DNA from: Spirochaetota bacterium
GTDB lineage: Bacteria; Spirochaetota; Spirochaetia; Treponematales; Rectinemataceae
NCBI GenBank assembly: GCA_040757435.1
Contig: JBFLXC010000002.1
Location: 1 to 60,231 of the forward strand
Direction: 5' to 3'
DNA: 60,231 nucleotides
The position numbers and the translations under genes are program-made. Below are positions 12,217 through 28,339 of this stretch, one piece after another. The notes below the pieces were generated by a model. It was given only the letters and a program-made list of their open reading frames with translations. It did not search any database and was not told the origin of the DNA. Numbering within the stretch: the stretch's first letter is position 1; every line of letters starts with the position of its first letter.

Positions 12217-12220
12217 GAAG

Positions 12221-13402
12221 GTGGCATACACCTGCATTCACAACGCCACGGTGGTCGCGGGCTACGCCCAGATGCCCGAGAGCGCCGTCCTGGTGGAGGG
12301 CGCCTCGGTGGTGGAAGTGTTTTCGGAGCGGCGTTTCAGGCAGAAAAGCTTCTCCCGGGACGACACAGTCATCGACGCGGAAGGATCCTACCTGGTTCCG
12401 GGGCTCATCGACTCCCATATCCACGGCTTCGCGGGATACGGAACCGAGGACCTGTCCACTGACTCCATCCTCCACATGTCCGAAAAGCTCGCGGGATACG
12501 GAGTCTCCGCATTCTGCCCCACCCTCTACCCCATGGCCGAAGAAGACATGGTCAAGGGCATACGGGCGATCGTGGCCGCCATGGGCCTGGAGAGGGGAGC
12601 TACCGTGCTGGGCGTCCACCTGGAGGGACCCTTCATATCGGAGCACCAGCTCGGGGTCCAGCGCAAGGAGTTCGTGAAGCCGGTGGACATAGAGTTGATG
12701 CAGAGGCTCTACGAGGCCAGCGAAGGCAAGATCGTCAACATGACCGTGGCGCCCGAGCTCAAGGGGATGAGGGAGCTCGCCCTGTACTGCAACAACAAGG
12801 GCATTGTCCTCCAGGCCGGCCACACGGACGCCACCTATGAGAACATGATAGAGGGAATGCAGGCGGGGATCCGGCATTCCACCCATGTGTTCAACGCCAT
12901 GAGCCGCCTCCACCACCGCAACCCCAACGCCGTGGGCGCCATCCTCATCCAGCCCGACCTCTCCTGCGAGATCATCGCCGACGGCCATCATGTCCATCCC
13001 GACCTGGTGAGGCTTCTCGTGCGGGACAAGCCGGACACCAACATCGTCCTTGTCACCGACGCCCTGAAGCCTACGGCGCAGAAAAAGGGGCCCTTCTTCG
13101 CCAACAATGAGGAAGTCTACTTTTCCGACGGCATATTCCTAAGGGCCAGCGACCATGTGATTGCCGGCAGCTCCCTCACCATGCTGGACGGATTGAGGAA
13201 TCTCGTCTCCTACGGTATTCCTATGGAGGTGGCGGTAAAGATGGCCTCGCCCAACCCGGCCCGGATCCTCCACCTCAAGCGGATGGGGGAGATCAGCCCG
13301 GGATTCCAGGCCGACATGACCCTCCTCACCAGGGAATTCCAGGTCCTCGCCTCCATGGTGAAGGGCGAGTTCGTCTACGGCGGGGAAAGGAAGCAAGGAT
13401 GA
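12221..13402 (+). CDS. nagA: N-acetylglucosamine-6-phosphate deacetylase
   Basis: '[12 protein letters not shown]', '[10 protein letters not shown]' and 'AGHTDATYE' motifs. GTG 12221 is preceded by GGGAGG. The in-frame ATG at 12200 is an alternative but overlaps the upstream gene. Confidence 0.85.
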
Positions 13403-14199
13403 GAGTGATCATACAGCCCGACGCGGAAAAAGTGGCCCAATGGGCGGCCAACCATGTGGCGCGCCGGATCGCCGCGGCGCAAAAGGGGAGGCCCTTCGTG
13501 CTCGGACTTCCCACGGGCTCGACTCCCCTGGGCATGTACAGGAAGCTGATCCAGCTCCACGAGGCCGGCAAGGTTTCCTTCTCCAACGTCGTCACCTTCA
13601 ACATGGACGAATATGTCGGCCTGGACCATGGCCACCCCCAGAGCTACCACCGGTTCATGTGGGACAATTTCTTTTCCCGCGTCGACATCCCCAAGGAGAA
13701 CGTCCACATCCTGGACGGGATGGCCAAGGACCTGGAGCAGGAGTGCGCCCGCTACGAGGCGGCCATGGAGGCGGCTGGTGGCGTGGACCTCTTCGTGGGC
13801 GGCGTGGGGGCTGACGGCCACATCGCCTTCAACGAGCCTGGCTCATCCCTCTCTTCCAGGACGAGGATAAAGACCCTCACGGCCGATACGCGCAGGGCCA
13901 ACGGAAGGTTCTTCGGCGGAGATCCGGCCTCGGTGCCTTCCACCGCGCTGACGGTGGGCGTGGGAACCGTGATGGGAGCCCGGGAGGTCCTGGTGCTGGT
14001 CACGGGCCAGGGAAAGGCTCGTGCCTTGCGCCACGGCGTGGAGTTCGGCGTGAACCACATGTGGACCATCTCCTGCCTCCAATTGCATCCCAAGGCGATC
14101 ATCGTGGCGGACGAGGACGCGACGGTGGAACTGAGGGTGGGAACGGTGCGGTACTTCGCCGAGATCGAGGCAGCCAACCTGGAGAACGGCCTGGCGTAG
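13399..14199 (+). CDS. nagB: Glucosamine-6-phosphate deaminase
   Basis: 266 aa. 'LGLPTGSTP', 'FNMDEYVGL' and '[17 protein letters not shown]' are canonical NagB motifs. 4-nt overlap with nagA. Confidence 0.92.
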
Positions 14200-15814: not shown

Positions 15815-17497
15815 ATGGCCACATACGACGACAAGAAAATCATTTACTCCATGTACCGGGTTTCCCGCAAGCATGGCATGAAGCAGGTCCTGAAGGACAT
15901 TTCCATATCCTACTACTACGGCGCCAAGATCGGCGTCATCGGCCTCAACGGCTCGGGGAAGTCCAGCCTCCTTCGCATCATGGCGGGGAAGGACGGGGAT
16001 TACTTGGGGGAGATCAGCCTCGCCCAGGGCTACACCATAGGGTTCCTCGAGCAGGAGCCCCACCTGGAGGACGGAAAGACAGTCCGGGAGGTGGTGAGCG
16101 AGGGCGTGCAGGAGATCGTGGACGCCTTGGCGGAATTCGACGCGGTGAACGAAGCCTTCGGGGATCCGGACGCGGACTTCGACAAGCTCGCCTCGAAGCA
16201 GGCGGCCCTGCAGGAAAAGCTCGACGCCTTCGACGCCTGGAACCTGGATTCCAAGCTGGATTTCGCCATGGAAGCCCTCAGGTGCCCGCCTCCCGACCAG
16301 TTGGTGGACCATCTTTCCGGAGGGGAGCGGAGGCGGGTGGCCCTGTGCAGGCTCCTTCTGAAAAAGCCGGACATCCTTCTCCTGGACGAGCCCACCAACC
16401 ACCTGGACGCAGAGACCATAGCCTGGCTTGAGCGCCACCTGAGGGACTACGAGGGCACGGTGATCGCCGTTACCCACGACCGCTATTTCCTGGACAATGT
16501 CGCCGGCTGGATCCTTGAGCTGGACCGAGGGGAAGGCATCCCCTGGAAGGGCAACTACTCCTCCTGGCTGGACCAGAAGAAGAAGCGCCTGGAGCAGGAG
16601 GAGAAGGGCGAATCCGAAAGGGCCAGGACCCTGGCCAGGGAACTCGACTGGATCGGCATGAGCCCCAAGGGCAGGCACGCCAAGAGCAAGGCCCGCATCG
16701 AGCGCTATGAAAAGCTCCTGGCGGAGGACGGAAAGGAAAAGCTCAAGGAATCCAAGATCGTCATTCCCGCCGGTCCCAGGCTGGGAAAGGTGGTCATCGA
16801 GGCCAAGGCCCTCTCCAAGGCCTACGGGGACAAGCTTTTGTTCGACGGCTTGGACTTCGAAGTTCCCCCCGGGGCGGTGGTTGGCGTCGTGGGTCCCAAC
16901 GGGGCGGGGAAGACAACCCTCCTCAACCTCATCACAGGAAGGGAAAAGCCCGATTCCGGGGAGATCCGCCTGGGAGACACGGTGGTCCTGGCCTACGCGG
17001 ACCAGATGCGCGCCTCCCTGGATCCCGAGAAGACCGTGTGGGAGCAGCTTTCCGACGGCCAGGACATCATCGTCCTTGGGGGCAAGCGGGAAGTGAATTC
17101 CCGCGCCTATTGCTCCTGGTTCAACTTCTCCGGCCAGGACCAGCAGCGCAAGGTGGGTGTCCTTTCCGGCGGGGAGCGCAACCGGCTCAACATGGCCATG
17201 ATGGTGAAGCAGGGGGCCAACGTCCTTCTTCTGGACGAGCCCACCAACGACCTGGACGTGAACACCATGCGCGCCTTGGAGGAAGCCCTGGATTCCTTCG
17301 CCGGCGTCGCCCTTGTGGTGAGCCACGACCGTTGGTTCCTTGACCGGGTCTGCACCCACCTTCTGGCCTTCGAGGACGGGTCGAAGGTGCATTGGTACGA
17401 CGGAAACTGGTCGGAATACGCCCAGTGGCGCCGCGAGACCCTGGGCATCGACGCAGAGAGACCCCACAGGATCGTGTACCGGAAGCTGGAGCGCTGA
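15815..17497 (+). CDS. ettA: Energy-dependent translational throttle protein (ABC-F ATPase)
   Basis: 560 aa. Two ABC cassettes ('GLNGSGKSS', 'LSGGERRRVAL', 'GPNGAGKTT', 'LSGGERNRL') and an EttA-like N-terminus 'YSMYRVSRKHG'. Confidence 0.9.
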   Translation: MATYDDKKIIYSMYRVSRKHGMKQVLKDISISYYYGAKIGVIGLNGSGKSSLLRIMAGKDGDYLGEISLAQGYTIGFLEQEPHLEDGKTVREVVSEGVQEIVDALAEFDAVNEAFGDPDADFDKLASKQAALQEKLDAFDAWNLDSKLDFAMEALRCPPPDQLVDHLSGGERRRVALCRLLLKKPDILLLDEPTNHLDAETIAWLERHLRDYEGTVIAVTHDRYFLDNVAGWILELDRGEGIPWKGNYSSWLDQKKKRLEQEEKGESERARTLARELDWIGMSPKGRHAKSKARIERYEKLLAEDGKEKLKESKIVIPAGPRLGKVVIEAKALSKAYGDKLLFDGLDFEVPPGAVVGVVGPNGAGKTTLLNLITGREKPDSGEIRLGDTVVLAYADQMRASLDPEKTVWEQLSDGQDIIVLGGKREVNSRAYCSWFNFSGQDQQRKVGVLSGGERNRLNMAMMVKQGANVLLLDEPTNDLDVNTMRALEEALDSFAGVALVVSHDRWFLDRVCTHLLAFEDGSKVHWYDGNWSEYAQWRRETLGIDAERPHRIVYRKLER

Positions 17498-17545
17498 GGG
17501 TGTAAAACGCCGAGATCCTTCAGCCCCACCCTGGTGCAAAGCAAG

Positions 17546-17590
17546 CCCCGAGGACGTCAAATTACAGGATGTCCTCGGGGTGTTTTATTT
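17546..17590 (+). terminator. Rho-independent terminator after ettA
   Basis: CCCCGAGGAC (17546-17555) pairs perfectly with GTCCTCGGGG (17571-17580), followed by TGTTTTATTT. Confidence 0.8.
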
Positions 17591-17689
17591 CGACTGCGCC
17601 ATCCACTACTAGGCGCTTTCTCTGATAAATTCAATAGATAAATATAATTGTCAGATTTCCCCAAGAAGAGGCAAGGGAAAAAATGTTGA

Positions 17690-17718
17690 TTGACAACTAT
17701 AAAATAGTCGACTATTAT
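17690..17718 (+). promoter_or_regulatory. Sigma70 promoter with an embedded palindromic operator (TRAP operon)
   Basis: TTGACA, 17 nt, TATTAT. The spacer and -10 contain the perfect palindrome ATAGTCGACTAT (17704-17715). 25/29 identical to the promoter at 27287-27259 on the minus strand. Confidence 0.7.
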
Positions 17719-17784
17719 TAAACTCACCTAATGGAAATCGAGTCTTCCATAGCGAGGTTTTTACTTGTTCGAAAGGAGGAAAGC

Positions 17785-18873
17785 ATGAAAAGGAAAGGAT
17801 TTTTTGTCGCGGCCATAGCCCTTATGCTCTTTGGGCTGGTCTTCGGCGCCTTTGGCCAGGCCAAGCCGGGAAGCGCGAGTTCAGTCATCGCGGAAAGCAA
17901 GTTCAAAGGTGTCAAGGCGGATTACACCTTGAAATTCTCCCTTCAGGAGCCCAGCGCCGACAATCCGGAATTCAACGCCGCCGTAGCCTTCAAGAATTAT
18001 GTGGAATCCCAGACGGGCGGGAAGGTCCAAATCCAGCTTTTCCCCAGCGCTCAGCTCGGGAACGAACGTGAGATAGTCGAGGCCATCAAGGCGGGCAACG
18101 TCGACCTGGGGACTTCCGCGGAAGGTCCTGTGGCCGGATTCGTCCCTGAAGTCTCCGTCCTTTCGATCCCCTACCTCTTCAAAGCCGGTCCCGTTGCATG
18201 GAAGGTGCTGAGCGGCCCCTTCGGCGAAGAGTTGAAGGAATTGATCTGGAAAAAGGGCAAGCTGCGGGTCTTGGCCTTCGGCATGAACGGCTTCAGGAGC
18301 TTTACCAATTCCAGGAAGCCGATCTATAAGCTGGAAGATCTCAAGGGCCTGAAGATCCGGGTCATGCAGGACAAGACCTATGTGGCCATGGTGAACGCCC
18401 TTGGAGCGATGGCGACCCCGATGGCAGGCGGCAACGAGCTGTACAGCGCCCTGCAGCAGAAAGTGGTGGACGGACAGGAAAACCCGCTGGACGGTATCTA
18501 CGCCTACAAGCTGTACGAGCAGCAGCCCTACATCACCGTCGACGCCCACACCTACAGCACGAAATTCCTCTTCGCCGACGACAAGAAGCTTAAGTCCATG
18601 CCCAAGGATTACCAGCTGGTCATCATGAATGGTGCCAGGATCTGGCAGTCCCACCTAGAAGGTCCCAAGGAAACCGCTTCCGTCGCTTCGTTCTTCATCC
18701 TCAAGGACCTGGTGAAGGAAATCTACACCCTGCCGCCCAGCGAGAAGGAAAGATTTAGGGCGGCGGCGCAGCCTGCGGTCATAGACTACATGAAAGGCAC
18801 CATCGGCGGCGAATGGATCGAAAAAGTCCAGGCGGCGGTCAAGCAAGCCGAGTTGGAGATCTACGGCGAATAA
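17785..18873 (+). CDS. dctP: TRAP transporter substrate-binding protein (DctP family)
   Basis: Signal peptide 'MKRKGFFVAAIALMLFGLVFGAFGQA' and DctP-like sequence ('GNEREIVEAIKAGNVDLG', 'KGLKIRVMQ'). Start taken at ATG 17785, preceded by AAGGAGG. Confidence 0.85.
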   Translation: MKRKGFFVAAIALMLFGLVFGAFGQAKPGSASSVIAESKFKGVKADYTLKFSLQEPSADNPEFNAAVAFKNYVESQTGGKVQIQLFPSAQLGNEREIVEAIKAGNVDLGTSAEGPVAGFVPEVSVLSIPYLFKAGPVAWKVLSGPFGEELKELIWKKGKLRVLAFGMNGFRSFTNSRKPIYKLEDLKGLKIRVMQDKTYVAMVNALGAMATPMAGGNELYSALQQKVVDGQENPLDGIYAYKLYEQQPYITVDAHTYSTKFLFADDKKLKSMPKDYQLVIMNGARIWQSHLEGPKETASVASFFILKDLVKEIYTLPPSEKERFRAAAQPAVIDYMKGTIGGEWIEKVQAAVKQAELEIYGE

Positions 18874-18890
18874 GCCTTTTCGATTGAGAT

Positions 18891-18938
18891 GGATAGTGCG
18901 CCGGATTCGTTCGGGTCTGGCGCCCTATCCTTTTTTTT
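18891..18938 (+). terminator. Intra-operon hairpin plus T8 between dctP and dctQ
   Basis: GGATAGTGCGCCGG (18891-18904) pairs 12/14 with CTGGCGCCCTATCC (18917-18930), followed by TTTTTTTT (18931-18938). Confidence 0.7.
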
Positions 18939-18971
18939 CCGGCCTAAGGATCAAATACGGAGGGGAGCGTC

Positions 18972-19472
18972 ATGGTGTGGTTGGCGAAGTTGCTGAGCTC
19001 GATCACTGAAAAAATTCTGTTCGTCCTTCTTTCTGCGATGACAGTCATCGTTTTCTGCCAGGTGCTGTTTCGGTATGTCCTCAACGCCCCCTTGTATTGG
19101 ACTGAAGAAGCCGCCCGCTACCTGATGATCTGGATCGTTTTCCTTGGGGCGAGCATCGGAATCCGCAAAGGGGCGCACCTGGGATTCACATGGTTCGTGG
19201 AGAGGTCCAACTCCAAGATGCGGAGATTTTACGGCATTGTCGCCCACCTTGGGCTTCTAGCCTTTTCCCTGAACATCACGTATTACGGGACCATCGTCAC
19301 CTTTCAGAATTTCGACCAGCTCTCGCCGGGCCTGCAGATGCCTGTGGCGTTTGTCTACGCCTGTCTTCCCGTAGGAGGCTTGTTGGCGATAGTCCAGCTC
19401 ATCCCCATCCTCGCGAAATTGATAGGCGCCCGGGAAGAGGGGGCGAAGAATCCAACGGGAGCGGCATCATGA
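18972..19472 (+). CDS. dctQ: TRAP transporter small permease (DctQ family)
   Basis: 166 aa, 4 TM segments, 'RYVLNAPLYWTEEAARYLMIWIVFLGAS'. Confidence 0.85.
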   Translation: MVWLAKLLSSITEKILFVLLSAMTVIVFCQVLFRYVLNAPLYWTEEAARYLMIWIVFLGASIGIRKGAHLGFTWFVERSNSKMRRFYGIVAHLGLLAFSLNITYYGTIVTFQNFDQLSPGLQMPVAFVYACLPVGGLLAIVQLIPILAKLIGAREEGAKNPTGAAS

Positions 19473-20755
19473 TAGTGTTCATCGTATCCGTAGCCTTCGT
19501 TGTCCTTCTCTTCGTCGGGATGCCCATCTCCTTCACCATTGGGCTCACATCGGTCATAGCGAGCTTCCTCGACAGCGGGATCTCGCCGACGGCCATCACC
19601 ACAAAGCTTGTCACGGGTATCGATACCTTCCCGCTCATGGCCGGCGCGTTCTTCATCCTGGCCGGGGAAGTCATGAGCACGGGGAGCATAACCAGAAGGC
19701 TTGTTGAATTCTCCAAGGTGATAATCGGCAGGGTTCGCGGAGGAACGTCCCTGACCGCCGTAGCCGCCAGCGTGTTCTTCGCGGGGATCAGCGGAGCCGC
19801 TGTGGCGGACCTCGCCGCCGTGGGCTCGATGCTGACTCCTGCCATGAAGCAGGAAGGCTACGACGACGACTTCGCGACGGCGTTGCCGGTAGCCGCCTCG
19901 GTGGTTGGTCCGATCATCCCGCCTAGCACCATCATGGTCATATACGCCATGGCCACGGGAACTTCCATCGGCGCGTTGTTCGTAGCGGGCATAGTGCCTG
20001 GCTTGCTCTTTGGGTTGGTCTTGGGCGGTATGGCGTACTACTACGCCGTGAAGAGAAAGTATCCCCGCAACGACGCCCCCTTCCCAGGCATCAAGGAGTT
20101 CTTCAAGCTTACCAGGAAGGCCATGCTGGTGCTCTTCATGCCCATCATCATCGTAGGCGGAGTGTTGAGCGGTGTCTTCACCGCCACGGAATCGGGCAAC
20201 ATCGCGGCGGTTTACGCGTTGATCCTTTCGATTTTCGTCTACAAGGAATACAAGCTCAAGGATCTTTACAGGATCCTGGTCAACTCCTCGGTCACAATAT
20301 CCATAGCCCTTCTGGTGATTTCCACGGCTTCGAGCCTCGCGTGGATATTCTCCATCATGCAGTTGCCCCAGAAGGCCCTTATCCTCATGACCTCCATATC
20401 GGAAAACCCCTATGTGTTCCTCATGCTCCTCAACGTATTGCTCATGGTGGCAGGCATGTTCCTGGATCCCGGGGCGGCAATAATAATATTGGCCCCCATG
20501 CTGGTTCCTCTCACCCGGTACTTCAACATCGATCCATTGCACATGGCCATCGTCGTCTGCCTCAACCTCACTGTCGGCCTGATAACGCCGCCTGTCGGGG
20601 TATGCCTCTACGTAGGCGCCGGGATAGGCAAGATCTCCATCGAGCGGGTCATCAAGAACGTCACACCCTTCATGATCGCGGAATTCGCCATCGTCCTTCT
20701 CATCACCTACCTTCCCGCGATCGCCACAACGTTGCCCAGGGCCCTGGGCTTTTAG
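19469..20755 (+). CDS. dctM: TRAP transporter large permease (DctM family)
   Basis: The 'MIVFIVSVAFVVLLFVGMPISF' start forms an ATGA overlap with the dctQ stop. About 428 aa, polytopic. The track start at 19190 lies inside dctQ. Confidence 0.88.
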   Translation: MIVFIVSVAFVVLLFVGMPISFTIGLTSVIASFLDSGISPTAITTKLVTGIDTFPLMAGAFFILAGEVMSTGSITRRLVEFSKVIIGRVRGGTSLTAVAASVFFAGISGAAVADLAAVGSMLTPAMKQEGYDDDFATALPVAASVVGPIIPPSTIMVIYAMATGTSIGALFVAGIVPGLLFGLVLGGMAYYYAVKRKYPRNDAPFPGIKEFFKLTRKAMLVLFMPIIIVGGVLSGVFTATESGNIAAVYALILSIFVYKEYKLKDLYRILVNSSVTISIALLVISTASSLAWIFSIMQLPQKALILMTSISENPYVFLMLLNVLLMVAGMFLDPGAAIIILAPMLVPLTRYFNIDPLHMAIVVCLNLTVGLITPPVGVCLYVGAGIGKISIERVIKNVTPFMIAEFAIVLLITYLPAIATTLPRALGF

Positions 20756-20764
20756 GGAGATATA

Positions 20765-21529
20765 ATGGACAGGCTTATAGGAAAGGTGGCGGTCATAACA
20801 GGCGCCGGTTCAGGCATAGGCAGGGCTGCGGCGATCCGCTTCGCCAAGGAAGGAGCCGGGGTGGTGGCGGCTGACATCAATCTCGCCGCCGCACAGGAGA
20901 CCTGCGTCCTTGTCGAGAGAGCAGGGGGCAAGGCCGTGGCCGCCAAGGCGGACGTAAGCAAGTCCCCGGACGTGAAGGCCATGCTGGACATGGCGGTGGA
21001 TCGATTCGGGCGCCTTGATATCCTGTTCAACAACGCGGGCCTTCCCCAGACCAACCAAAAGATCCAGGATTATCCCGAGGAATTGTTCGACCGCATCGTC
21101 GGCGTCAACATCAAGGGAGTCTTCCTGGGCTGCAAGCACGCGGTTCCCATCTTTGAAAGGCAGGGATGGGGCGGGGTGATCATCAACACCGCCTCCATAG
21201 CAGCCTCAAGGCCCAGGCCGGGGCAGAACATCTACGCCGCTTCAAAGGGCATGGTGGTGACCTTGACAAGGGCGTTGGCGGGGGAACTGGCTCCCATGCG
21301 GGTAAGGGTGGTGGCCATCAATCCCGTGGCCGTTGACACCCCGATGTTCTTCGGTTTCATAGGGGACCGGGACGAGGCGGAAGCCAGGAAGGCCTTCACC
21401 GAATCGATTCCCCTGGGCAGGTTCGCCCAGCCCGAGGACATAGCCAACGCGGCCCTCTACCTGGCGTCTGACGAGGCGTCCCTGGTGACGGGGACCATCC
21501 TGGACGTGGACGGCGGCCGCGGCGTCTGA
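20765..21529 (+). CDS. Classical SDR-family oxidoreductase
   Basis: 254 aa. 'TGAGSGIG', 'NNAG', and catalytic 'YAASK'. Confidence 0.85.
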   Translation: MDRLIGKVAVITGAGSGIGRAAAIRFAKEGAGVVAADINLAAAQETCVLVERAGGKAVAAKADVSKSPDVKAMLDMAVDRFGRLDILFNNAGLPQTNQKIQDYPEELFDRIVGVNIKGVFLGCKHAVPIFERQGWGGVIINTASIAASRPRPGQNIYAASKGMVVTLTRALAGELAPMRVRVVAINPVAVDTPMFFGFIGDRDEAEARKAFTESIPLGRFAQPEDIANAALYLASDEASLVTGTILDVDGGRGV

Positions 21530-21541
21530 AAGGAGTGATCC

Positions 21542-21889
21542 ATGGTCCGAGATTCGGAAGCGATGCGCGCCGAGCTGCGTCGCCACATGGGCGGGGGCAA
21601 GGGCGAGGTGGCGGTGATGCACATCCTGGAGAAGGATGAGATGAAGGGCCACGGGAGGCTCTTCGCCCGGAACATCCTCAAGCCCGGAACTTCCATAGGG
21701 ATGCACCAGCATGTGGGGGATTTCGAAGTCTACTACATCGCCAAGGGCCGCGGAGTCTTCAACGACAACGGAACCCTGGTCCCCGTCAAGGAAGGCGACG
21801 TGGGGATCATCGACAATCTCCAGAGCCACGCCATCGAAAACACAGGCAACGAAGACATGGAAGTGATAGCGGTGGTCCTTTACGAATAA
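21542..21889 (+). CDS. Small cupin-domain protein
   Basis: 115 aa. Cupin motif 1 'GTSIGMHQHVGDFEVYYIAKGRG' and motif 2 'GDVGIIDNLQSHAIEN'. Confidence 0.8.
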   Translation: MVRDSEAMRAELRRHMGGGKGEVAVMHILEKDEMKGHGRLFARNILKPGTSIGMHQHVGDFEVYYIAKGRGVFNDNGTLVPVKEGDVGIIDNLQSHAIENTGNEDMEVIAVVLYE

Positions 21890-21915
21890 TTGACGATGCC
21901 CAACAGGAGAGACTC

Positions 21916-23103
21916 ATGGACAAGCAGCAGGCGCAAAAGTTGTACGATTTCATAGACCGGGGCGAGTTGACCGATTTCCTCCAGAAGGCGCTGCAGATAC
22001 CCAGCCACATCGAATATCCGGACCAGGAGAAGGAGATGGGCGAATTCATCGCCCAGAGGATGAGGTCCGAAGGCATCGAGACCCAGATGCAGTTCGTCGA
22101 GGGCAAGAGGGCCAACATCCTGTCGGTCATCAAGGGATCCTCGGGCGGAAAGAGCGTGACCTACAACGGCCATATAGACAGCATCCCTCCCTTCGACATG
22201 GCCGAGCCCTATTCGGGCAGGATCGACGGTGACATGATGTACGGCCGCGGCGCCAGCGACATGAAGAGCGGCATAATCGCCATGGCCTACGCCATGATCG
22301 CCATAAAGAGGTCGGGCTTCGCCCCTCCCGGAGACATAGTGCTCTCCGCGGTGGTGGGCGAGGAGTACGGGAGCTTTGGCGCGACCCATTACGTGAAGCA
22401 CAGTCCTCTCACGGACTACGGGGTGTGCGGCGAGCCCACGGGGCTCAAGATCGCCTCGGCCCAGAAGGGCCTGCACTGGTTCGAGTTCAACGTGCCCGGC
22501 AAGCGCATCCATTCCAGCGTGTCCTCCCAGGGCATAAACGCCTTGAAGCGCCTCAACGCATTGATGAGCCTGATCAACGGGAAACTGGAGCCAGAGCTGA
22601 AGAAACGCACCCATAGGCTCCTGGGCTCCTCGCTGGTCAACCTGGGGAAGGCATGGGGAGGGGAGCAGCCCAACGTTGTCCCCGGGGAAGCCCATCTTCA
22701 GATCGAAAGGCGCTACATCCCCGGCGAGACGTTGGAAAGCGTGATGAAGGAGTTGGACGATATCGTTGCGGAATGCAACGTGGGATACGAGGGATATCCC
22801 GTAACCTACGACCACATGCCCTACAGCCTTCTGGTGAGCAAGACTCCCATGGATGTTCCCGCGGAGCACCCCATCGTGCAGGGCATGCTCAAGGCGGGAC
22901 GGGATGTGCTCGGGTCGGAGCCTGAGATATTCGGCGCTCCCTTCTGGGGCGACGCGGGGGTGCTCAACGATGCTGGCGTCACCACGGTGCTCTTTGGCCC
23001 CGGCGAGGTCGCGGACGCCCATACCGCCACGGAGCATGTGAGCCTGACCAATGTGTACAAGGCGGCCAAGGTCTACGCCGCCCTGCCGTTCTTCCTGGGG
23101 TAG
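21916..23103 (+). CDS. M20-family metallohydrolase (ArgE/DapE/ACY1-like deacylase)
   Basis: 395 aa. 'NGHIDSIP', 'GRGASDMKSG', 'VVGEEYGSFG'. Confidence 0.8.
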   Translation: MDKQQAQKLYDFIDRGELTDFLQKALQIPSHIEYPDQEKEMGEFIAQRMRSEGIETQMQFVEGKRANILSVIKGSSGGKSVTYNGHIDSIPPFDMAEPYSGRIDGDMMYGRGASDMKSGIIAMAYAMIAIKRSGFAPPGDIVLSAVVGEEYGSFGATHYVKHSPLTDYGVCGEPTGLKIASAQKGLHWFEFNVPGKRIHSSVSSQGINALKRLNALMSLINGKLEPELKKRTHRLLGSSLVNLGKAWGGEQPNVVPGEAHLQIERRYIPGETLESVMKELDDIVAECNVGYEGYPVTYDHMPYSLLVSKTPMDVPAEHPIVQGMLKAGRDVLGSEPEIFGAPFWGDAGVLNDAGVTTVLFGPGEVADAHTATEHVSLTNVYKAAKVYAALPFFLG

Positions 23104-23107
23104 GGCG

Positions 23108-23977
23108 ATGGAACGCATAGGCCTTGTGGGCATAGGCGCCATGGGGAGCGGCATAGCGGAAAACCTCCTCAAGGCCGGCCATCCCGTATGGGCCTTCCAT
23201 CGGCCCACGCCATCGGGAAAGGCCGCGGCGGAAAAACTTTCCGCCCTTGGAGCCGAAACTTGCGAAGACTTGGGGGAAGTGTTCTCGAAGGCCGACGTCC
23301 TTGCGATCTGCCTGCCCCGCTCGGAGGACGTGGAGTCCATCATCCTCGGCCCTGGGGGATTGGCGGAGGCCAGGGGCACGACGGTCCGGACGGTTCTGGA
23401 TTTTTCCACCGCCCATCCCGATTCCACGAGGAAACTACACTCCCTTCTCAAGGGCGAGGGCGTGGATTTCCTCGACATTCCCATGACGGGCAGCGTGAGG
23501 GAAGCCAAGGAGGGAACCCTGAACCTGATCGCAGGGGGAGAGGAGGGAGTGTTCCGCCGCGTGGAGCCCCTCCTGCGGAAAATATCGGCCCTTGCGTTGT
23601 ACGCCGGACCCAGCGGATCGGGCAACCTTGTGAAGCTAGCCAACAACCTGCTGGCCATCCTCGACCAGGCGGTGACAGCCCGCATTTCCATCGAACTCGA
23701 CAGGAATGGAATATCGCCTAACGTTTACACCGAATTTTTGGGCAAGAGCAGCGCGAACAGCGGCGGGTTCAGGCTCATGATGTATCGCATAATGTCAGGA
23801 GATTTCGCGAGGAAATTCGAGCTCAGCCTCGCCCTCAAGGACATAGGCTACTGCAGGGATGTCTTTCCCTCGCCCTTCGCCGAGGAATTGCACTCCTTCC
23901 TGACGAAGGCGAGCGAGGCGGGGTATGGGGACAAGGACATAGGAGCCATGTACCATTATCTTAAGGAAAATTCCTAG
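23108..23977 (+). CDS. Beta-hydroxyacid dehydrogenase (HIBADH/6PGDH NAD-binding family)
   Basis: 'IGLVGIGAMGSGIAENL' Rossmann motif and 'GSGNLVKLANN' catalytic-Lys motif. Start taken at ATG 23108, just after the upstream stop. Confidence 0.8.
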   Translation: MERIGLVGIGAMGSGIAENLLKAGHPVWAFHRPTPSGKAAAEKLSALGAETCEDLGEVFSKADVLAICLPRSEDVESIILGPGGLAEARGTTVRTVLDFSTAHPDSTRKLHSLLKGEGVDFLDIPMTGSVREAKEGTLNLIAGGEEGVFRRVEPLLRKISALALYAGPSGSGNLVKLANNLLAILDQAVTARISIELDRNGISPNVYTEFLGKSSANSGGFRLMMYRIMSGDFARKFELSLALKDIGYCRDVFPSPFAEELHSFLTKASEAGYGDKDIGAMYHYLKENS

Positions 23978-24639
23978 GCCTTTTTCTTCCCGTAGGTTTT
24001 CTGGAAATTGACCAGCCCCGCCTTGATGTGCTCCTCCATGAGGGCGCCGTATTTCTCCGGGCTCAGGTCCTTCGTCTCCATGTGGGCCACAAGATCGTCG
24101 TGGGTGTGGAGATCGAAATCCATGTTGATGTTGATGAACTGCAGTCGGTATCGGATATTCTGTATCCTGAGACTCTTGCAGAAATCCGCAAGGATTTCGT
24201 TCTCGCTTTTCTCGGCGAAAAACTCATGGAACTGGTCGTGGGAATCCAAGAAGCTGCGCAGGTCCTTTTTTTCCGCAGCCTCCTTCATGAGCCCGTAGAA
24301 TTTCTTCAATTCCGCCGCCGCGGAAGTCCCGACCCTTTCGTAGGCAAGGCGGGCCGCGAGTCCCTCCACCGTGGTGCGCACCACGAAATGGTTGAGCACG
24401 TCCTGGGTGGATATGGTTTTGACGTAGCAGCCTCTCCGGGGCCTGTATTCCACCAGGCCGACCTTCATCAGGCCTTGCAAGGCCTCCCGAACCGGCGACT
24501 TGCTGACGGAAAATTCTTCCATCACATCAGTCTCTATGAGCTTCTGGCCAACTTCATATTCGCCGGATAAAATCTTCTCCGCGATCTTGTCGAAGAGAAA
24601 CTCGGAAAGGTTCTGGAAACGTTGCTCGCTCTTTTTCAT
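23974..24639 (-). CDS. GntR-family (FadR/FCD subfamily) transcriptional regulator
   Basis: N-terminal wHTH 'GQKLIETDVMEEFSVSKSPVREALQGLMKVGLVEYRPRRG' plus a helical FCD-like C-domain. I prefer ATG 24639 (MKKSEQRF). The track's TTG at 24690 would place an operator-like site inside the coding sequence. Confidence 0.8.
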   Translation of the reverse strand: MKKSEQRFQNLSEFLFDKIAEKILSGEYEVGQKLIETDVMEEFSVSKSPVREALQGLMKVGLVEYRPRRGCYVKTISTQDVLNHFVVRTTVEGLAARLAYERVGTSAAAELKKFYGLMKEAAEKKDLRSFLDSHDQFHEFFAEKSENEILADFCKSLRIQNIRYRLQFININMDFDLHTHDDLVAHMETKDLSPEKYGALMEEHIKAGLVNFQKTYGKKKA

Positions 24640-24678
24640 CCTTTTTGACCTCGGCGCTTTTTCGGTAACTCTTTGCGA

Positions 24679-24690
24679 AGAGTCGACCAA
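24679..24690 (-). promoter_or_regulatory. Degenerate copy of the GTCGAC-centred operator upstream of gntR
   Basis: The minus strand reads TTGGTCGACTCT, a 9/12 match to TTAGTCGACTAA, about 40 nt upstream of the preferred gntR ATG. Confidence 0.35.
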
Positions 24691-24749
24691 TTATACCGAC
24701 CTGTGAAACATCCCGCAATATGGTTTCGCTCCATAAAGTTTCATGAAAT

Positions 24750-24786
24750 AAAAAAAAGGTCCGAACCTTCGCCTCGGTTCGAACCT
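24750..24786 (-). terminator. Rho-independent terminator after the transaldolase-like gene
   Basis: On the minus strand, GGTTCGAACC and GGTTCGGACC form a hairpin with one mismatch/wobble, followed by a run of 8 T (plus-strand A-run 24750-24757). Confidence 0.7.
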
Positions 24787-24796
24787 TTTATCAGCC

Positions 24797-25843
24797 TCAA
24801 GCTTTTCGAAGCGCCTTGATCTCTTCCAGCACCGCCTTCCAGGACTTGAGGAACATGCTCCTGAAAAGCTCCACGGGGCCGAACTCCTCGAACTCGTCCA
24901 GCTCAAGGCCCTTGGGGTCCCAGCCCTTGCGGAAGTCGGGGAGCTTCTCCAGAAGCTCGTCCACCACAAGGGGAGGGACGGGATTGAAGAAGCGATGGAC
25001 CACGTCGGGATTCTGCTCTATGAGGGTGTCCGCCGTGCCCTTCCAGTTGATGGTGACCACCTGGTGCCCTCCCACCATTTCGGTGAAATGCCGCAGCTGC
25101 CGCGCCCCGCCTCCTATTATGACCGGCGCGTAATTCCGGTCGTGGAGGACTTGGTACATTTTTCTCGTGGCGGCCATGCCGGCTTGGCGGACAACGTCGC
25201 CTTCGATATCCACCTTGTTGTCCCGCACATAGTTTTCCAGGTACTCGTCATAGATGCCGGTGATGAAGGAAAGCCATATGGGAGGCCTTTTGTTCGCCTT
25301 CCTGGTGATCGCCTCGTACATCTCGCAGAGCTCTATCCCCTGGGCGATGGACATGATCTCCGTGGCGTTGATGGGATAGCCCTCGGGAATGAGGGTTTCC
25401 ATCGCCTTCAGGCCAGCCTTGGTGCAGGGAATCTTGATCGCGATGTTCTTGCCCAGGGCTCCGTTCTTCCGCGCCTCGTCGATGATCACCTGGGGATCGT
25501 GCTCATGGATGGGATCCCCCTGGATGCTCACGTAGCCGTGCTTTCCATCGCTCTCCTTCCAGAGGGGATAGAAGATTTCCTGGATCGGCTTGACCAGCTT
25601 CCTTTGGAAAATGGCCGCGGCCTCGTCGTCGTCGGAGCTTTCCTTCACAGCCTCGAGGAGGAAGGGGCGGGCGTAGGAACCTTCCTGGAGGTGGGTGAGC
25701 ATCTTGTGGCTGTAGGATGGGTTGTTCGTGCAGCCGAGGGCTCCGCTTTCTATGGCGAGCCTGGCTTCCTCCCTGGTCGGATTGTTGATCCAGAACATGG
25801 TGGGGGAGAGTCTATGGACTCGGTGGAAATATCCGTTTTTCAT
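24797..25843 (-). CDS. Transaldolase-family protein (class I aldolase fold, Schiff-base Lys retained)
   Basis: 348 aa. 'GCTNNPS' (compare D.TTNP), 'IAIKIPCTKAG' (catalytic Lys motif), 'INATEIMS'. Confidence 0.75.
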   Translation of the reverse strand: MKNGYFHRVHRLSPTMFWINNPTREEARLAIESGALGCTNNPSYSHKMLTHLQEGSYARPFLLEAVKESSDDDEAAAIFQRKLVKPIQEIFYPLWKESDGKHGYVSIQGDPIHEHDPQVIIDEARKNGALGKNIAIKIPCTKAGLKAMETLIPEGYPINATEIMSIAQGIELCEMYEAITRKANKRPPIWLSFITGIYDEYLENYVRDNKVDIEGDVVRQAGMAATRKMYQVLHDRNYAPVIIGGGARQLRHFTEMVGGHQVVTINWKGTADTLIEQNPDVVHRFFNPVPPLVVDELLEKLPDFRKGWDPKGLELDEFEEFGPVELFRSMFLKSWKAVLEEIKALRKA

Positions 25844-25861
25844 GAAGGACTCCTTAGGCGG

Positions 25862-27223
25862 CTAGAGTGTTAGGCCCAGCTTGCGTTCCACATCCGAAAG
25901 GGCCTGGTCGAGTATACCCAACAAATCCTCGACCTGTCTCTCGGTGATCACCAAGGGCGGGCCGAGCATGATCATGTTTCCTTCCACCCCGTCCAGGCAG
26001 CCGTAGCAGGGGAATACGATGAGACCCCGGTCCCGGGCGGCCTTCTCCACCATCCTGCTCACGTTGGCTGAGACGGGGAAGGGCGCCTTGGTCTTCTTGT
26101 CCGCCACGCATTCGAAGCCTACCATCAGCCCCTGGCCGCTCACCCTGTCCATCATGGGGTGCTTTTCCGAAAGGCTTTGCAGGCCTTGCTTGAGCTGCCT
26201 CCCACGGGCTTCCGAGTTCTCCGCCAGATGGTTCCGGTCCATGTAGTCTATGGCGGCCACGGCGGCGGCGCAGGATACTATGTTCGCGTTGAGGGTGTGG
26301 CCGGACTTGAAGGCGGAGTTGCTCTTCTCCAACGTTTCCCATATGTCGTCCCGGGCGATGGTGGCGGCGATGGGTATGTATCCCGAGGTCATTCCCTTGG
26401 CCGTTGCGACTATGTCCGGGGTGACGCCCGAGTAGTCGATGCCCCAGGCCTTGCCCGTCCTGCCCCAGCCTGTCATCACTTCGTCGGCGATGAAGAGCAC
26501 GTCGTAGGCGTCGCAGATCTTCCTGATCAGCTCGAAGTAACCCTCCGGGGCGGACACGGCGGCCAGGGCGGCGCCCACCATGGGTTCCGCTATGAAGGCC
26601 GCCACGTTCTCCGGGCCTTGCTGGCGTATCGCGGTCTCCAGGGCACGGGCGCAGAGAAGGCCGCAGGAGGGATGGGATTTTTCATAGTGACAGCGGTAGC
26701 AATAGGCGGGAGGGATGTGGGGGGAGTCGACGAACATGGGCTGGAAAAGCTTACGCCTGGCCGTGAGGCCGGAGAAACCCGCCACGGCGATATTGTTCCC
26801 GTGGAAGGATTGCCAGCGGGAGATGACCTGGAACTTGGAGGGCTTTCCCTTTTCCACCCAATATTGCCTGGCGAGCCTGACGGCGTCGTCGGTGGAGTCG
26901 GTGCCGGTGCAGGAGAACCAGACCCTGCTCGTTCCCTTCAGCGTTCCCGGCGCCTTCTGCACCACCTTTTCCGCCAGCTTGAGGACCGCCTCCCCCGTGA
27001 AGGCGTGGGTGGGGGCGTAGGATATCTTCTTCGCCTGCTCGAACATGGCGGCGTAGACTTCCTCCACGCCGTGCCCCAGGGAGGTGCAGACCGAGGAGCC
27101 CCCCGATCCGTCTATGTATTTGTTGCCTGCGCTGTCGTAAAGATAGATCCCCTCCGCCCGCTCGATGATCGGGAATTCCTTGTTCCAGTCCCGCATGACC
27201 GCGTAATTCTTGTTGTCCGCCAT
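25862..27223 (-). CDS. Class-III (omega-type) PLP aminotransferase
   Basis: About 453 aa. 'FIADEVMTGWGRTG' and PLP-Lys 'ATAKGMTSGY'. ATG 27223 is preceded by GGAGG. Confidence 0.85.
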   Translation of the reverse strand: MADNKNYAVMRDWNKEFPIIERAEGIYLYDSAGNKYIDGSGGSSVCTSLGHGVEEVYAAMFEQAKKISYAPTHAFTGEAVLKLAEKVVQKAPGTLKGTSRVWFSCTGTDSTDDAVRLARQYWVEKGKPSKFQVISRWQSFHGNNIAVAGFSGLTARRKLFQPMFVDSPHIPPAYCYRCHYEKSHPSCGLLCARALETAIRQQGPENVAAFIAEPMVGAALAAVSAPEGYFELIRKICDAYDVLFIADEVMTGWGRTGKAWGIDYSGVTPDIVATAKGMTSGYIPIAATIARDDIWETLEKSNSAFKSGHTLNANIVSCAAAVAAIDYMDRNHLAENSEARGRQLKQGLQSLSEKHPMMDRVSGQGLMVGFECVADKKTKAPFPVSANVSRMVEKAARDRGLIVFPCYGCLDGVEGNMIMLGPPLVITERQVEDLLGILDQALSDVERKLGLTL

Positions 27224-27258
27224 GGATATCCTCCACAATTGCTGGGAATCTTATTTTT

Positions 27259-27287
27259 ATATTAGTCGACTAAAGTATAGTTGTCAA
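27259..27287 (-). promoter_or_regulatory. Sigma70 promoter with an embedded palindromic operator (aminotransferase-transaldolase operon)
   Basis: The minus strand reads TTGACA-ACTATACTTTAGTCGAC-TAATAT. It contains the perfect palindrome TTAGTCGACTAA (27262-27273). 25/29 identical to 17690-17718. Confidence 0.7.
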
Positions 27288-27339
27288 TAAGAAACCTTCA
27301 TTTTTAGCGCCCCCTGCCCAAGCCGCGGCCCCCATCGGC

Positions 27340-27403
27340 CGGCGTGGCGGCCCCCAACGTGCGGCGTGGCGGCCCCCAACGTTCGGCGTGGCGGCCCAAA
27401 CCC
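27340..27403. repeat. 22-bp tandem repeat, about 2.9 copies
   Basis: CGGCGTGGCGGCCCCCAACGTG / CGGCGTGGCGGCCCCCAACGTT / CGGCGTGGCGGCCCAAACCC, located in the divergent intergenic region upstream of the EamA gene. Confidence 0.85.
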
Positions 27404-27445
27404 ACCGCTAGAACCTGGCGCCGCCGTTCTGATAGACTCCGGGAT

Positions 27446-28339
27446 ATGAAATTCGCCGGGAACCTTGTTGGAAGGCGTCACAGGAGCGACCAGGCGGCGG
27501 GCATCCTGGCGATGCTGGGCTGCGCCCTGCTCTGGAGCACCGCCGGCTTGTTCATCAAGCTCATAGACTGGCAACCCTTCGCCCTGGCGGGGATCCGGAG
27601 CTCCGTGGCGGCCGTATTCCTCTGGATCGTCGTCAAGAAGCCGAAATTCACGTTTTCCTTTCCCCAGATGGTTTCCGCCCTGGCCTACGCCTCCACCATG
27701 ATCCTCTTCGTCTTCGCCAACAAGAAGACCACAGCCGCTAACGCCATCCTCCTCCAGTATGGAGCTCCCGTATACGTGGCCATCCTTGGCTCCCTGATAC
27801 TCAAGGAAAAGCCGAGGAAAGAACACGTCCTCGCCCTAGCCGCCGTTGTGGTGGGCATGGTGGTGTTTTTCGTCGAGTCCCTGGGGGGCGGCAGCCTCCT
27901 TGGTGACGCCGTGGCCGCCATAGCCGGCCTCACCTTCGCCACCAACATCGTATTCCTGCGCAAGCAGAAGGATGCCTCGCCCATCGACTCCCTCCTTTTG
28001 GGCCATATCTTCACCGCCCTCATCGCCGGGGCCATCTCCCTATCCTTCCCCGCTCCTCGGTTCAGCTTCAGCTCCATCGCCGCCGTAGCCTCAATGGGAG
28101 TCCTGCAGATCGGCGTCCCGGCCCTCCTTTTCGCCTACGGGATCAAGAGGATCACCGCCCTGGAGAGTATCCTCACCGCGGTGGTGGAACCTCTTTTCAG
28201 CCCCCTCTGGGTATTCCTGGCCACCGGCGAGGCTCCGGGCCTAAGCGCCTTCGCCGGCGGTTCCATAATCCTGGGAGCTGTGGTCAGCTCCTCCGTCGCC
28301 TCGGTGCGGCGCAACGCAAGGACAAGGACGGCGCGGTAA
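27446..28339 (+). CDS. EamA/DMT-family transporter
   Basis: About 297 aa, 10 predicted TM segments, 'LLWSTAGLFIKL'. Start taken at ATG 27446, because the track start runs through the tandem repeat. Confidence 0.75.
   Translation: MKFAGNLVGRRHRSDQAAGILAMLGCALLWSTAGLFIKLIDWQPFALAGIRSSVAAVFLWIVVKKPKFTFSFPQMVSALAYASTMILFVFANKKTTAANAILLQYGAPVYVAILGSLILKEKPRKEHVLALAAVVVGMVVFFVESLGGGSLLGDAVAAIAGLTFATNIVFLRKQKDASPIDSLLLGHIFTALIAGAISLSFPAPRFSFSSIAAVASMGVLQIGVPALLFAYGIKRITALESILTAVVEPLFSPLWVFLATGEAPGLSAFAGGSIILGAVVSSSVASVRRNARTRTAR

Follow-up and report, generated by a model that had tools for sequence, protein, structure and literature searches.

The closest described counterparts of the locus reported here are the catabolic systems for ectoine, for threonate and erythronate and for oxidised chitin. 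The locus is a set of eleven genes at positions 17785–28339 of a 60,231-nucleotide stretch (the window) of contig JBFLXC010000002.1, from a Spirochaetota bacterium of the family Rectinemataceae (assembly GCA_040757435.1), and it encodes a tripartite ATP-independent periplasmic (TRAP) importer, an M20-family deacylase, a class-III aminotransferase, a transaldolase-like (TAL-like) enzyme and a GntR-type regulator, among others. Clusters for ectoine and hydroxyectoine carry Doe or Eut enzymes with the UehABC TRAP transporter. L-threonate and D-erythronate are reportedly degraded through LtnD or Ltn3D, OtnI, OtnK and OtnC, a route said to go back to Zhang et al. in 2016. L-threonate catabolism was also treated by Watanabe et al. 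(2026), with a new L-threonate 3-dehydrogenase (PMC12994016). For oxidised chitin, in the pathway of N-acetylglucosaminate (GlcNAc1A), OngB, a descendant of an amino-acid deacetylase, takes the acetyl group off an N-acetylated amino sugar acid, which can formally be classed as an N-acetyl amino acid (PMC9537276; PMC12017989).

The cluster resembles all three in logic and fails the defining gene content of each. It shares with the threonate/erythronate pathway the uptake of an acid sugar and a dehydrogenase of the 3-hydroxyisobutyrate dehydrogenase (HIBADH) family and/or the short-chain dehydrogenase/reductase (SDR) family acting on a hydroxy acid, and the route proposed below shares a keto-hydroxy acid intermediate, loss of CO2 and a triose-level product. 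However, OtnK, OtnC and OtnI are absent (17.7–28.4 kb), a deacylase and an aminotransferase are added, so that the keto group would come from an amine, and the last step would be a Schiff-base reaction without phosphorylation; the physical link to OtnK and OtnC genes is made by orthologues of the window deacylase, in other phyla only. Ectoine clusters likewise combine a TRAP system, an amide hydrolase, an N-deacetylase, a class-III aminotransferase, a dehydrogenase and a dedicated regulator, but their hydrolase and deacetylase families differ, and the window lacks DoeA/EutD, EutB and EutC and has a cupin and the TAL-like enzyme in addition. The logic of OngB is that proposed here for the M20 deacylase, although OngB has a D-aminoacylase TIM-barrel fold rather than an M20 fold, and the OngB/OngC pathway deaminates by a lyase to 2-keto-3-deoxygluconate (KDG) instead of by a transaminase, uses a KDG kinase and has no TAL-like enzyme. 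Literature searches (transaldolase, aminotransferase and TRAP; DUF1537, LarA and M20; transaldolase-like decarboxylase; amino-hydroxy substrates of the LarA superfamily) found no characterised pathway matching the cluster, and neither did the NCBIfam equivalog models, in agreement with the initial annotation, which had been unable to match the genes to a textbook route.

We propose, with a probability of roughly 0.45, that these genes form a regulon that imports and degrades an acylated amino-hydroxy acid by deacylation, transamination and Schiff-base cleavage. The TRAP system would import a carboxylate bearing hydroxyls and an acylated amino group, either an amino sugar acid or a shorter amino-hydroxy acid (about C4 to C6). 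The M20 deacylase would remove the acyl group, and the class-III aminotransferase would convert the freed amine to a carbonyl, giving a keto-hydroxy acid. The HIBADH-type enzyme, the SDR and the metal-binding cupin would shift or epimerise the carbonyl and hydroxyls, or reduce an aldehyde, before the transaldolase-fold enzyme forms a Schiff base with the ketone and cleaves a C–C bond, either as an aldol cleavage or as loss of CO2 from a 3-oxo acid. This last step would stand in for the OtnK/OtnC-type kinase and decarboxylase that follow the M20 orthologue in other bacteria, and the products would be small neutral units for central metabolism, made with no kinase and no phosphate. The phosphate-free scheme draws on two observations: the regulon contains no kinase, and a phosphate-binding arginine appears to have been lost in the TAL-like clade and kept in its sister clade.

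If true, the scheme would give anaerobic spirochaetes a route to an acylated amino sugar acid or amino-hydroxy acid, compounds for which one, quite different, pathway is known, that of OngB/OngC. It would also tie together two further uncharacterised operon types with parts in common with the cluster, described below, one from gut Firmicutes and Synergistetes and the other from Anaerolineae.

Gene content and the shared operator

Genes were taken from a mechanical list of open reading frames (ORFs) with their translations and were assigned to families by Pfam and NCBIfam profile searches. All eleven fall into previously named families; those given in the initial annotation were all recovered, and the motifs it had quoted, GSGNLVKLANN and IKIPCTKAG, are both found in the translations. 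The genes and regulatory elements are as follows.

17690–17718, + strand: promoter P1 with operator; −35 TTGACA, 17-nt spacer, −10 TATTAT
17785–18873, + strand: dctP, TRAP solute-binding protein with signal peptide (Pfam DctP, 249 bits)
18898–18923, + strand: stem-loop between dctP and dctQ, 11 pairs, weak T tail
18972–19472, + strand: dctQ, small TRAP membrane subunit (Pfam DctQ, 118 bits)
19469–20755, + strand: dctM, large TRAP membrane subunit (Pfam DctM, 361 bits; TIGR00786, 407 bits, cut-off 268)
20765–21529, + strand: classical SDR oxidoreductase
21542–21889, + strand: metal-binding cupin of TM1287 type, 115 aa (Cupin_2)
21916–23103, + strand: M20 deacylase of the ArgE/DapE family (Peptidase_M20 and M20_dimer; TIGR01910, 233.7 bits, cut-off 217.6)
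23108–23977, + strand: HIBADH-type beta-hydroxyacid dehydrogenase (NAD_binding_2 and NAD_binding_11)
23974–24639, − strand: gntR, regulator with GntR and FCD domains (mechanical ORF to 24690)
24680–24695, − strand: probable gntR promoter with operator-like site, TATAAT then TGGTCGACTC, weaker than P1 and P2
24754–24789, − strand: intrinsic terminator 3' of the TAL-like gene, 14 pairs and a T-run, the best terminator-like site on the strand
24797–25843, − strand: TAL-like gene (TAL_FSA, Pfam 89 bits)
25862–27223, − strand: class-III (omega-type) aminotransferase (Aminotran_3, 292 bits)
27259–27287, − strand: promoter P2 with operator; −35 TTGACA, 17-nt spacer, −10 TAATAT
27446–28339, + strand: EamA carrier, divergent from the aminotransferase

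The 25-bp sequence TTGACAACTATAnnnTAGTCGACTA occurs exactly twice in the window, at 17690–17714 (+) and 27263–27287 (−), and each copy points into its own operon, towards dctP and towards the aminotransferase gene, respectively. Its chance expectation is 0, and no match was seen in 100 shuffles. The two copies coincide with P1 and P2, the top two sigma-70-like promoters of the 11-kb region (11/12 and 10/12 matches), and both contain the palindrome TAGTCGACTA, at 17705–17714 over the spacer and −10 of P1 and at 27263–27272 in P2. A GT..AC core, as found in this palindrome, is typical of GntR operators, and the regulator itself combines a winged helix-turn-helix with an FCD domain. A variant of the palindrome stands at gntR; the counterpart in the closest relative (contig L001) reads TATAAT then TAGTCGACTT at the same position. 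Thus the shared operator that had been noted initially is real, with an exact element at two promoters and a weaker third site before gntR.

The composite is conserved in related genomes. Four related contigs (L001, L002, L003 and L090) carry the element before every transcription unit of the set despite changed gene order, that is, before dctP (the same composite in L002, L003 and L090), M20, the aminotransferase, the TAL-like gene or gntR, wherever these units have moved, which supports the co-regulation proposed earlier. The cluster therefore appears to be a regulon under one GntR/FCD repressor, with predicted binding at TAGTCGACTA. Three independently mobile transcription units would be involved, dctPQM–SDR–cupin(–M20–HIBADH), aminotransferase–TAL and gntR, and in each unit's promoter a palindrome of the form TAGTCGAC(T/C)A lies across the spacer and −10, where a bound repressor would obstruct RNA polymerase until released by an effector, most probably the substrate itself or a pathway intermediate. 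Since the terminator lies between the TAL-like gene and gntR, the latter probably forms a separate, autoregulated unit rather than standing third in the aminotransferase operon. With an exact operator and a clear promoter architecture, the regulatory part of the proposal is directly testable.

The contigs closest to the window belong to metagenome-assembled genomes labelled Spirochaetes or Treponemataceae. L002 has the whole set in the same order, its HIBADH gene being interrupted by masked bases, and L003 and L090 have the whole set reordered as (TRAP–SDR–cupin), (M20–HIBADH) and (GntR/aminotransferase/TAL). Throughout these loci the SDR gene always adjoins the cupin gene, and HIBADH always directly follows M20. 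The 'island' is thus made of three mobile sub-modules, TRAP–SDR–cupin, M20–HIBADH and aminotransferase–TAL–GntR; that they stay together through rearrangement and under one operator is good evidence for a single function. Taken together, the cluster is a well-delimited, co-regulated catabolic gene set composed of common families and one unusual enzyme clade.

Substrate class from the binding protein, the deacylase and the aminotransferase

All three TRAP components score above their cut-offs. The best PDB matches of DctP are 7bbr, 4p9k, 4pdh and 4pdd, followed by SiaP. The ligand of 7BBR is KDG, and those of the others are pantoate or erythronate (PMC11668362). The predicted carboxylate-binding triad Arg/Arg/Asn is present in DctP (NGFRSF, KIRV, GQENP), with a spacing (Arg, 21 residues, Arg, about 40 residues, Asn) matching that of Arg156/Arg177/Asn217 in IseP (PMC11668362). 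The organic-anion importer of the initial annotation is thus borne out, with nearest relatives that bind sugar acids and hydroxy acids. The SiaP match and a nagA/nagB pair upstream of the cluster also raised sialic-acid catabolism, which was rejected: NanA, NanK and NanE are missing, and nagAB is also present in L001, which lacks the island.

The M20 deacylase reaches no equivalog cut-off (ArgE, DapE) in NCBIfam, and its orthologue group is narrow (55–82% identical, followed by a drop to 41% and 34%). Outside the spirochaetes, its orthologues (60–70% identical), from Blautia, Synergistaceae and other contigs, lie in one type of operon in six of six loci (L081, L083, L085, L087, L088 and L089). 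That operon encodes a GntR/FCD regulator, a LarA-like 2-hydroxyacid racemase, a class-III aminotransferase, the M20 protein, a DcuC/DUF3100 carrier, a DUF1537 kinase and a class-II-aldolase-like protein. At 416 bits, the kinase clears the cut-off of 350 set for 3-oxo-tetronate kinase; the best model for the last protein is 3-oxo-tetronate-4-phosphate decarboxylase (180 bits, below the cut-off of 250). This operon of LarA, aminotransferase, M20, OtnK and OtnC type is apparently uncharacterised. As it contains no dehydrogenase, the keto group needed by the kinase and decarboxylase must come from transamination of the amine freed by M20. The M20 context is the strongest clue to the substrate class, and it points to an N-acylated amino-hydroxy acid. 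Consistent with this, the N-acylated anionic amino compound suggested initially fits both the relatives and the triad of DctP and the constant pairing of M20 orthologues with a class-III aminotransferase. In two of the six loci, on Lachnospiraceae-like contigs, coaBC, an energy-coupling factor (ECF) transporter component and coaX directly precede the operon.

Orthologues of the window aminotransferase (63–65% identical) are abundant in Anaerolineae, where the aminotransferase is the first gene of a tight operon (L014, L026, L061, L091 and L092). It is followed by an IolO-like (5-keto-L-gluconate epimerase-like) TIM barrel, a second TIM barrel, E1a, E1b, E2, an Asp/Glu-racemase-like protein and a TAL-like protein, both TIM barrels being xylose-isomerase-like. 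Divergent from these operons are genes for an M24 creatinase-like amidohydrolase, an SDR and a DUF4432 protein, and nearby are MttB-family methyltransferases, a URO-D-like protein, a sugar-type ABC system and a LacI regulator; this neighbourhood hints at catabolism of a methylated amino sugar-like compound. An amide hydrolase and an aminotransferase joined by enzymes for keto acids or keto sugars, with a TAL-like protein last, thus occur together in another phylum as well, which indicates that the aminotransferase and the TAL-like enzyme travel together.

The remaining enzymes of the cluster are less specific. The TAL-like protein, the aminotransferase, the SDR, the HIBADH-type enzyme and the cupin all stay below every NCBIfam equivalog cut-off. 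The closest PDB entries to the SDR are uncharacterised Brucella SDRs and TsaC; neither the new L-threonate 3-dehydrogenase (PMC12994016) nor 4DYV is close to it. Both cupin motifs are intact, with three histidines and one glutamate, and the protein matches PDB 1o4t (Thermotoga maritima TM1287) at E = 1e-34; a KdgF-type function was rejected, with no KdgF structure found at E ≤ 0.001. Relatives of the cupin elsewhere adjoin M20 amidohydrolases of other subfamilies and anion carriers. In L108 and L109 the gene for a relative comes after that for a CpsA/DoeB2-like M20D protein. In L112 (3641–9044), a cupin with 46% identity has an allantoate amidohydrolase (461 bits) on one side and an (S)-ureidoglycine aminohydrolase (316 bits) on the other, both scoring above their cut-offs, and the locus also includes a GntR/FCD regulator and a dicarboxylate symporter. 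Small TM1287-type cupins therefore recur beside M20 amidohydrolases of three subfamilies.

The transaldolase-fold enzyme

An AlphaFold2 model of the TAL-like protein (pLDDT 94) was compared with known structures by Foldseek and, as modelled, is most similar to the long transaldolases of Neisseria gonorrhoeae and Corynebacterium glutamicum (TM 0.76–0.79, 18–20% identity). The match to fructose-6-phosphate aldolase (FSA) is weaker, with E = 2.5e-4 over 54 residues. With these enzymes and TalB the protein shares the fold, the Schiff-base lysine, an asparagine and a threonine: Lys137 (IKIPCT) aligns with the Schiff-base motif IKVPAT, and Asn159 and Thr161 are retained in the profile alignment. In contrast, Asn20 occupies the position of the catalytic aspartate (FWINNPT against iWLDNlsR), Gln108 that of the catalytic glutamate (VSIQGDP against VSLEVSP), and Ile194 replaces the Phe (transaldolases) or Tyr (FSA) at the acid/base position. 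By a manual register on the S-x-x-x-G motif, Ile197 takes the position of a phosphate-binding arginine, and Arg248 is kept. The TalB counterparts are presumably K132 for the Schiff-base lysine, D17 and E96 for the catalytic acids, and R181 (Ile197 here) and R228 for phosphate binding. Asn20, Gln108, Lys137, Glu162, Ile194, Ile197, Asp199, Arg248 and His252 are invariant in 187 relatives from many phyla, Glu162, Asp199 and His252 being new in comparison with FSA and TalB.

A glutamine in place of the glutamate is a signature of FSA, an aldolase, which keeps the aspartate and has a tyrosine; TalB and FSA both have a phosphate-binding arginine where the window protein has Ile197. Of the FSA catalytic set Asp6/Gln59/Lys85/Tyr131, the glutamine and the lysine are present here, whereas the aspartate has become Asn20 and the tyrosine Ile194. 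The description in the initial annotation, a transaldolase-like enzyme that keeps its Schiff-base lysine, is right for Lys137 and incomplete for the rest of the active site, in which aspartate and glutamate are invariantly asparagine and glutamine. This replacement makes the C–C rearrangement by ordinary transaldolase chemistry that had been suggested unlikely; an ordinary pentose-phosphate transaldolase was rejected on the same grounds, the catalytic Asp and Glu being missing. Most likely the enzyme acts on an unphosphorylated ketone.

An exhaustive profile search gave about 209 TAL-like clusters at E ≤ 1e-30. The clade with the Asn/Gln/Lys pattern comprises about 200 clusters at 50% identity, from at least 355 species genomes of Chloroflexota, Acidobacteriota, Bacteroidota, Spirochaetota and Planctomycetota, and no NCBIfam model names it. 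A sister clade, apparently uncharacterised, has an FSA-like pattern of Asp/Gln/Lys with the phosphate-binding arginine at 197, and its proteins are 340–360 aa long. Unlike a stand-alone pentose-phosphate gene, the TAL-like gene lies in catabolic operons with thiamine pyrophosphate (TPP) enzymes, and it is found after a split transketolase and a racemase-like gene, after E1/E2, or beside GH51 or HpcH genes. One operon, in Bacteroidales (L048, L057, L058, L064 and L070), encodes GntR, a tartrate-dehydrogenase-like protein, a 'cyclase' (PF04199), the TAL-like protein, a major facilitator superfamily (MFS) transporter and a GFO/IDH/MocA protein; L048 is from Labilibacter marinus, a cultured strain in which genetic work on the clade could be done.

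It is tempting, although speculative and improbable on our estimate, to regard the clade as a new enzyme class that decarboxylates unphosphorylated 2-hydroxy-3-oxo acids, for example 3-oxo-tetronate, by way of a Schiff base (a 'decarboxylative aldolase'). The lysine would form an imine with the 3-oxo group, and CO2 would leave where transaldolases deprotonate the C4 hydroxyl, which would explain both the change of Asp/Glu to Asn/Gln and the apparent loss of the phosphate-binding arginine; the resulting dihydroxyacetone-type enamine would then be protonated or passed to an aldehyde. Such a step is attractive because a 2-hydroxy-3-oxo acid would place its carboxylate exactly at the site of action of the missing Asp and Glu, and because 3-oxo-threonate decarboxylates to dihydroxyacetone (PMC12994016). 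If true, the TAL-like enzyme would replace the ATP-consuming OtnK/OtnC pair and, with no kinase needed, complete the conversion of an N-acylated amino-hydroxy acid into triose-level products, and the same step would serve the operons in which the TAL-like gene follows TPP enzymes, tartrate-dehydrogenase-like or C2-epimerase-like proteins. The clade is large, widespread and uniformly annotated 'transaldolase', yet the textbook mechanism is impossible for it; assigning its reaction would correct many annotations and might give a new tool for breaking C–C bonds.

Competing explanations and neighbouring features

Several observations weigh against the proposed route, in which every enzymatic step, the substrate and the order of reactions are read from family membership and gene neighbourhood. 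The aminotransferase beside M20 in other phyla is only 36–38% identical to that of the window, so the two may be analogues rather than orthologues, perhaps for different amines. ArgE/DapE enzymes normally use L-alpha-amino acids, whereas acids of the D-glucosaminate type have the D configuration. The HIBADH-type enzyme and the SDR carry no specific substrate signal: the former scores about equally on the tartronate-semialdehyde, sulfolactaldehyde, hydroxyisobutyrate and L-threonate dehydrogenase models, all far below their cut-offs. None of 27 cupin relatives (39–53% identical) in a metagenome scan lies with other genes of the cluster, and the relative in L112 belongs to a ureide cluster. At least seven types of operon include a member of the TAL-like clade, and most of these have no aminotransferase or amidohydrolase. 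Finally, L001, the closest relative, retains only the TAL-like gene, gntR and the operator, without the TRAP–SDR–cupin–M20–HIBADH operon and the aminotransferase, which implies that the TAL-like enzyme has a role without TRAP, M20, aminotransferase and dehydrogenases.

This last point leads to one of the two best-surviving alternatives, namely that the genes are not one pathway: the TAL-like gene and gntR would be an older self-contained unit, perhaps a housekeeping sugar-rearranging one, beside which the TRAP, M20 and aminotransferase genes were inserted under a borrowed promoter. In L001 (VKGY01000018.1, 8863–13858, aligned with window 15815–28339; TAL 89% identical) the flanks are the same (nagAB, ABC-F, EamA, kinase, Tkt), and the two sequences differ by the presence or absence of about 7.6 kb, split into two pieces, the remaining genes having been either inserted in the window lineage or lost in L001. 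The frequent proximity of the TAL-like clade to transketolase genes, as for pentose-phosphate genes, and a somewhat lower GC content over 18–26 kb of the window are in keeping with this reading. We consider it unlikely all the same, as the same operator stands before each unit in four genomes despite rearrangements, the aminotransferase and TAL-like genes are linked in a different phylum too, and an active site without Asp, Glu and, apparently, one phosphate-binding Arg makes an ordinary transaldolase function unlikely.

Similarly unlikely is a ureide or beta-amino-acid route, in which a small amide, N-carbamoylated or of a related kind, would be the substrate, for example pyrimidine-derived N-carbamoyl-beta-alanine, an isoserine derivative or a ureide resembling allantoate. 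M20 would free the amine, the aminotransferase would yield malonate semialdehyde, tartronate semialdehyde or glyoxylate, and the HIBADH-type enzyme or the SDR would reduce these to 3-hydroxypropionate, glycerate or glycolate. The families allow it: HIBADH enzymes reduce 3-oxo-propanoate-type semialdehydes, M20 includes beta-ureidopropionase, and class-III aminotransferases include beta-alanine:pyruvate and alanine:glyoxylate (AGXT2) enzymes. Moreover, the best NCBIfam match of the HIBADH-type enzyme is tartronate-semialdehyde reductase (141 bits), the L112 cupin lies between two ureide enzymes, and the closest outgroup to the M20 (34% identity) has a cyclic amidohydrolase as its partner. However, the window M20 is of the ArgE/DapE type and not the carbamoylase type, dihydropyrimidinase, allantoinase and glyoxylate carboligase are all absent from the window, the TAL-like enzyme and the cupin are left without a role, and the 3-oxo-tetronate kinase and decarboxylase genes beside the M20 orthologues go unexplained.

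An ectoine-type route, in which M20 would deacetylate N-acetyl-2,4-diaminobutyrate, or a hydroxylated form, derived from ectoine or hydroxyectoine, the aminotransferase would transaminate it and the semialdehyde would be reduced, is less probable still. Ectoine clusters do bring together a TRAP system, an amidohydrolase, a deacetylase, a class-III aminotransferase, a dehydrogenase and the Asp/Glu-racemase-like EutA, and the Anaerolineae operons with aminotransferase and TAL-like genes have both an M24 creatinase/DoeA-like hydrolase and a racemase-like gene; furthermore, the M20D protein beside the cupin relative scores 297 bits on the DoeB2 model. Against this, the Anaerolineae M24 protein reaches only 41–51 bits on DoeA models, DoeA/EutD, DoeB, EutB and EutC are missing from the window and the cluster has neither an M24 protein nor one of AstE/AspA type, the best matches of DctP include no ectoine-binding proteins, and the TAL-like enzyme, the cupin and the OtnK/OtnC link would be unexplained.

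Salvage of pantothenate or pantoate is very improbable. M20 would act as a pantothenate amidohydrolase, the aminotransferase on beta-alanine, the dehydrogenases on pantoate and the TAL-like enzyme as a ketopantoate aldolase, and such a reading draws on the relatives of DctP crystallised with pantoate (PMC11668362; PMC5812351) and on the coaBC, ECF and coaX genes directly upstream of the M20 operon in two Lachnospiraceae-like contigs. These coenzyme A genes are adjacent in only two of six loci, though; the kinase after M20 is clearly a 3-oxo-tetronate kinase, and pantoate cannot form a 3-oxo acid; nor were any pantoate enzymes recognised.

The organosulfonate reading of the initial annotation (a sulfo-TAL-like or taurine/N-acetyltaurine pathway) fares worst and can be set aside as barely credible: a transaldolase-fold enzyme, a HIBADH-type reductase and anion handling do recall sulfofructose (SF) transaldolase with sulfolactaldehyde (SLA) reductase, and the isethionate-binding IseP is a detectable relative of DctP (E = 7e-29), but the match of the TAL-like protein to BmSF-TAL reaches no better than E = 3.7e-4, the catalytic Asp and Glu of the short, canonical Asp/Glu/Lys SF-TAL (8bc3) are absent from it, the HIBADH-type enzyme scores 124.7 bits against a cut-off of 348 on the SLA reductase (YihU) model, the cluster has amine-handling enzymes and no sulfoquinovosidase (GH31), isomerase, Xsc, sulfolyase, other desulfonating enzyme or sulfite exporter, and the M20 orthologues lead to tetronate, not sulfonate, genes.

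The EamA carrier is indeed transcribed divergently from the aminotransferase operon, as described earlier, but its membership of the regulon is doubtful, for it belongs to a conserved backbone (EamA–MarC–kinase–Tkt–UvrC) that L001 also keeps. Its position in L090 is 3' of the TAL-like gene, both genes having the same orientation. A function as dedicated exporter of the pathway was considered and is unsupported, the gene being part of the conserved flank.

Within the first operon, the ATG of dctM overlaps the stop codon of dctQ, and the stem-loop in the gap between the dctP and dctQ genes, perhaps an attenuator or a stabiliser, may give an excess of the binding protein over the membrane subunits. 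Three start codons were adjusted or fixed: gntR probably begins at the ATG at 24639, giving 221 aa like the L001 orthologue; the aminotransferase probably begins at the ATG at 27223 rather than 27238, preceded by GGAGG and giving 453 aa, the length of its orthologues likewise; and EamA probably begins at 27446. The HIBADH (+) and gntR (−) genes converge at 23974–23977, where their stop codons overlap by 4 nt, with no terminator between them; a transcript that runs on past either gene would be antisense to its neighbour.

The nagA/nagB genes (GlcNAc-6-P deacetylase and GlcN-6-P deaminase-like, identified by their translations only) lie at 12200–14199, 3.6 kb upstream of the cluster, and, as they are also kept in L001, are outside the variable island. 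Between the aminotransferase promoter and EamA, at 27325–27397, stand 3.3 tandem copies (92% matches) of the 22-bp GC-rich unit GCGGCCCCCAACGTCCGGCGTG.

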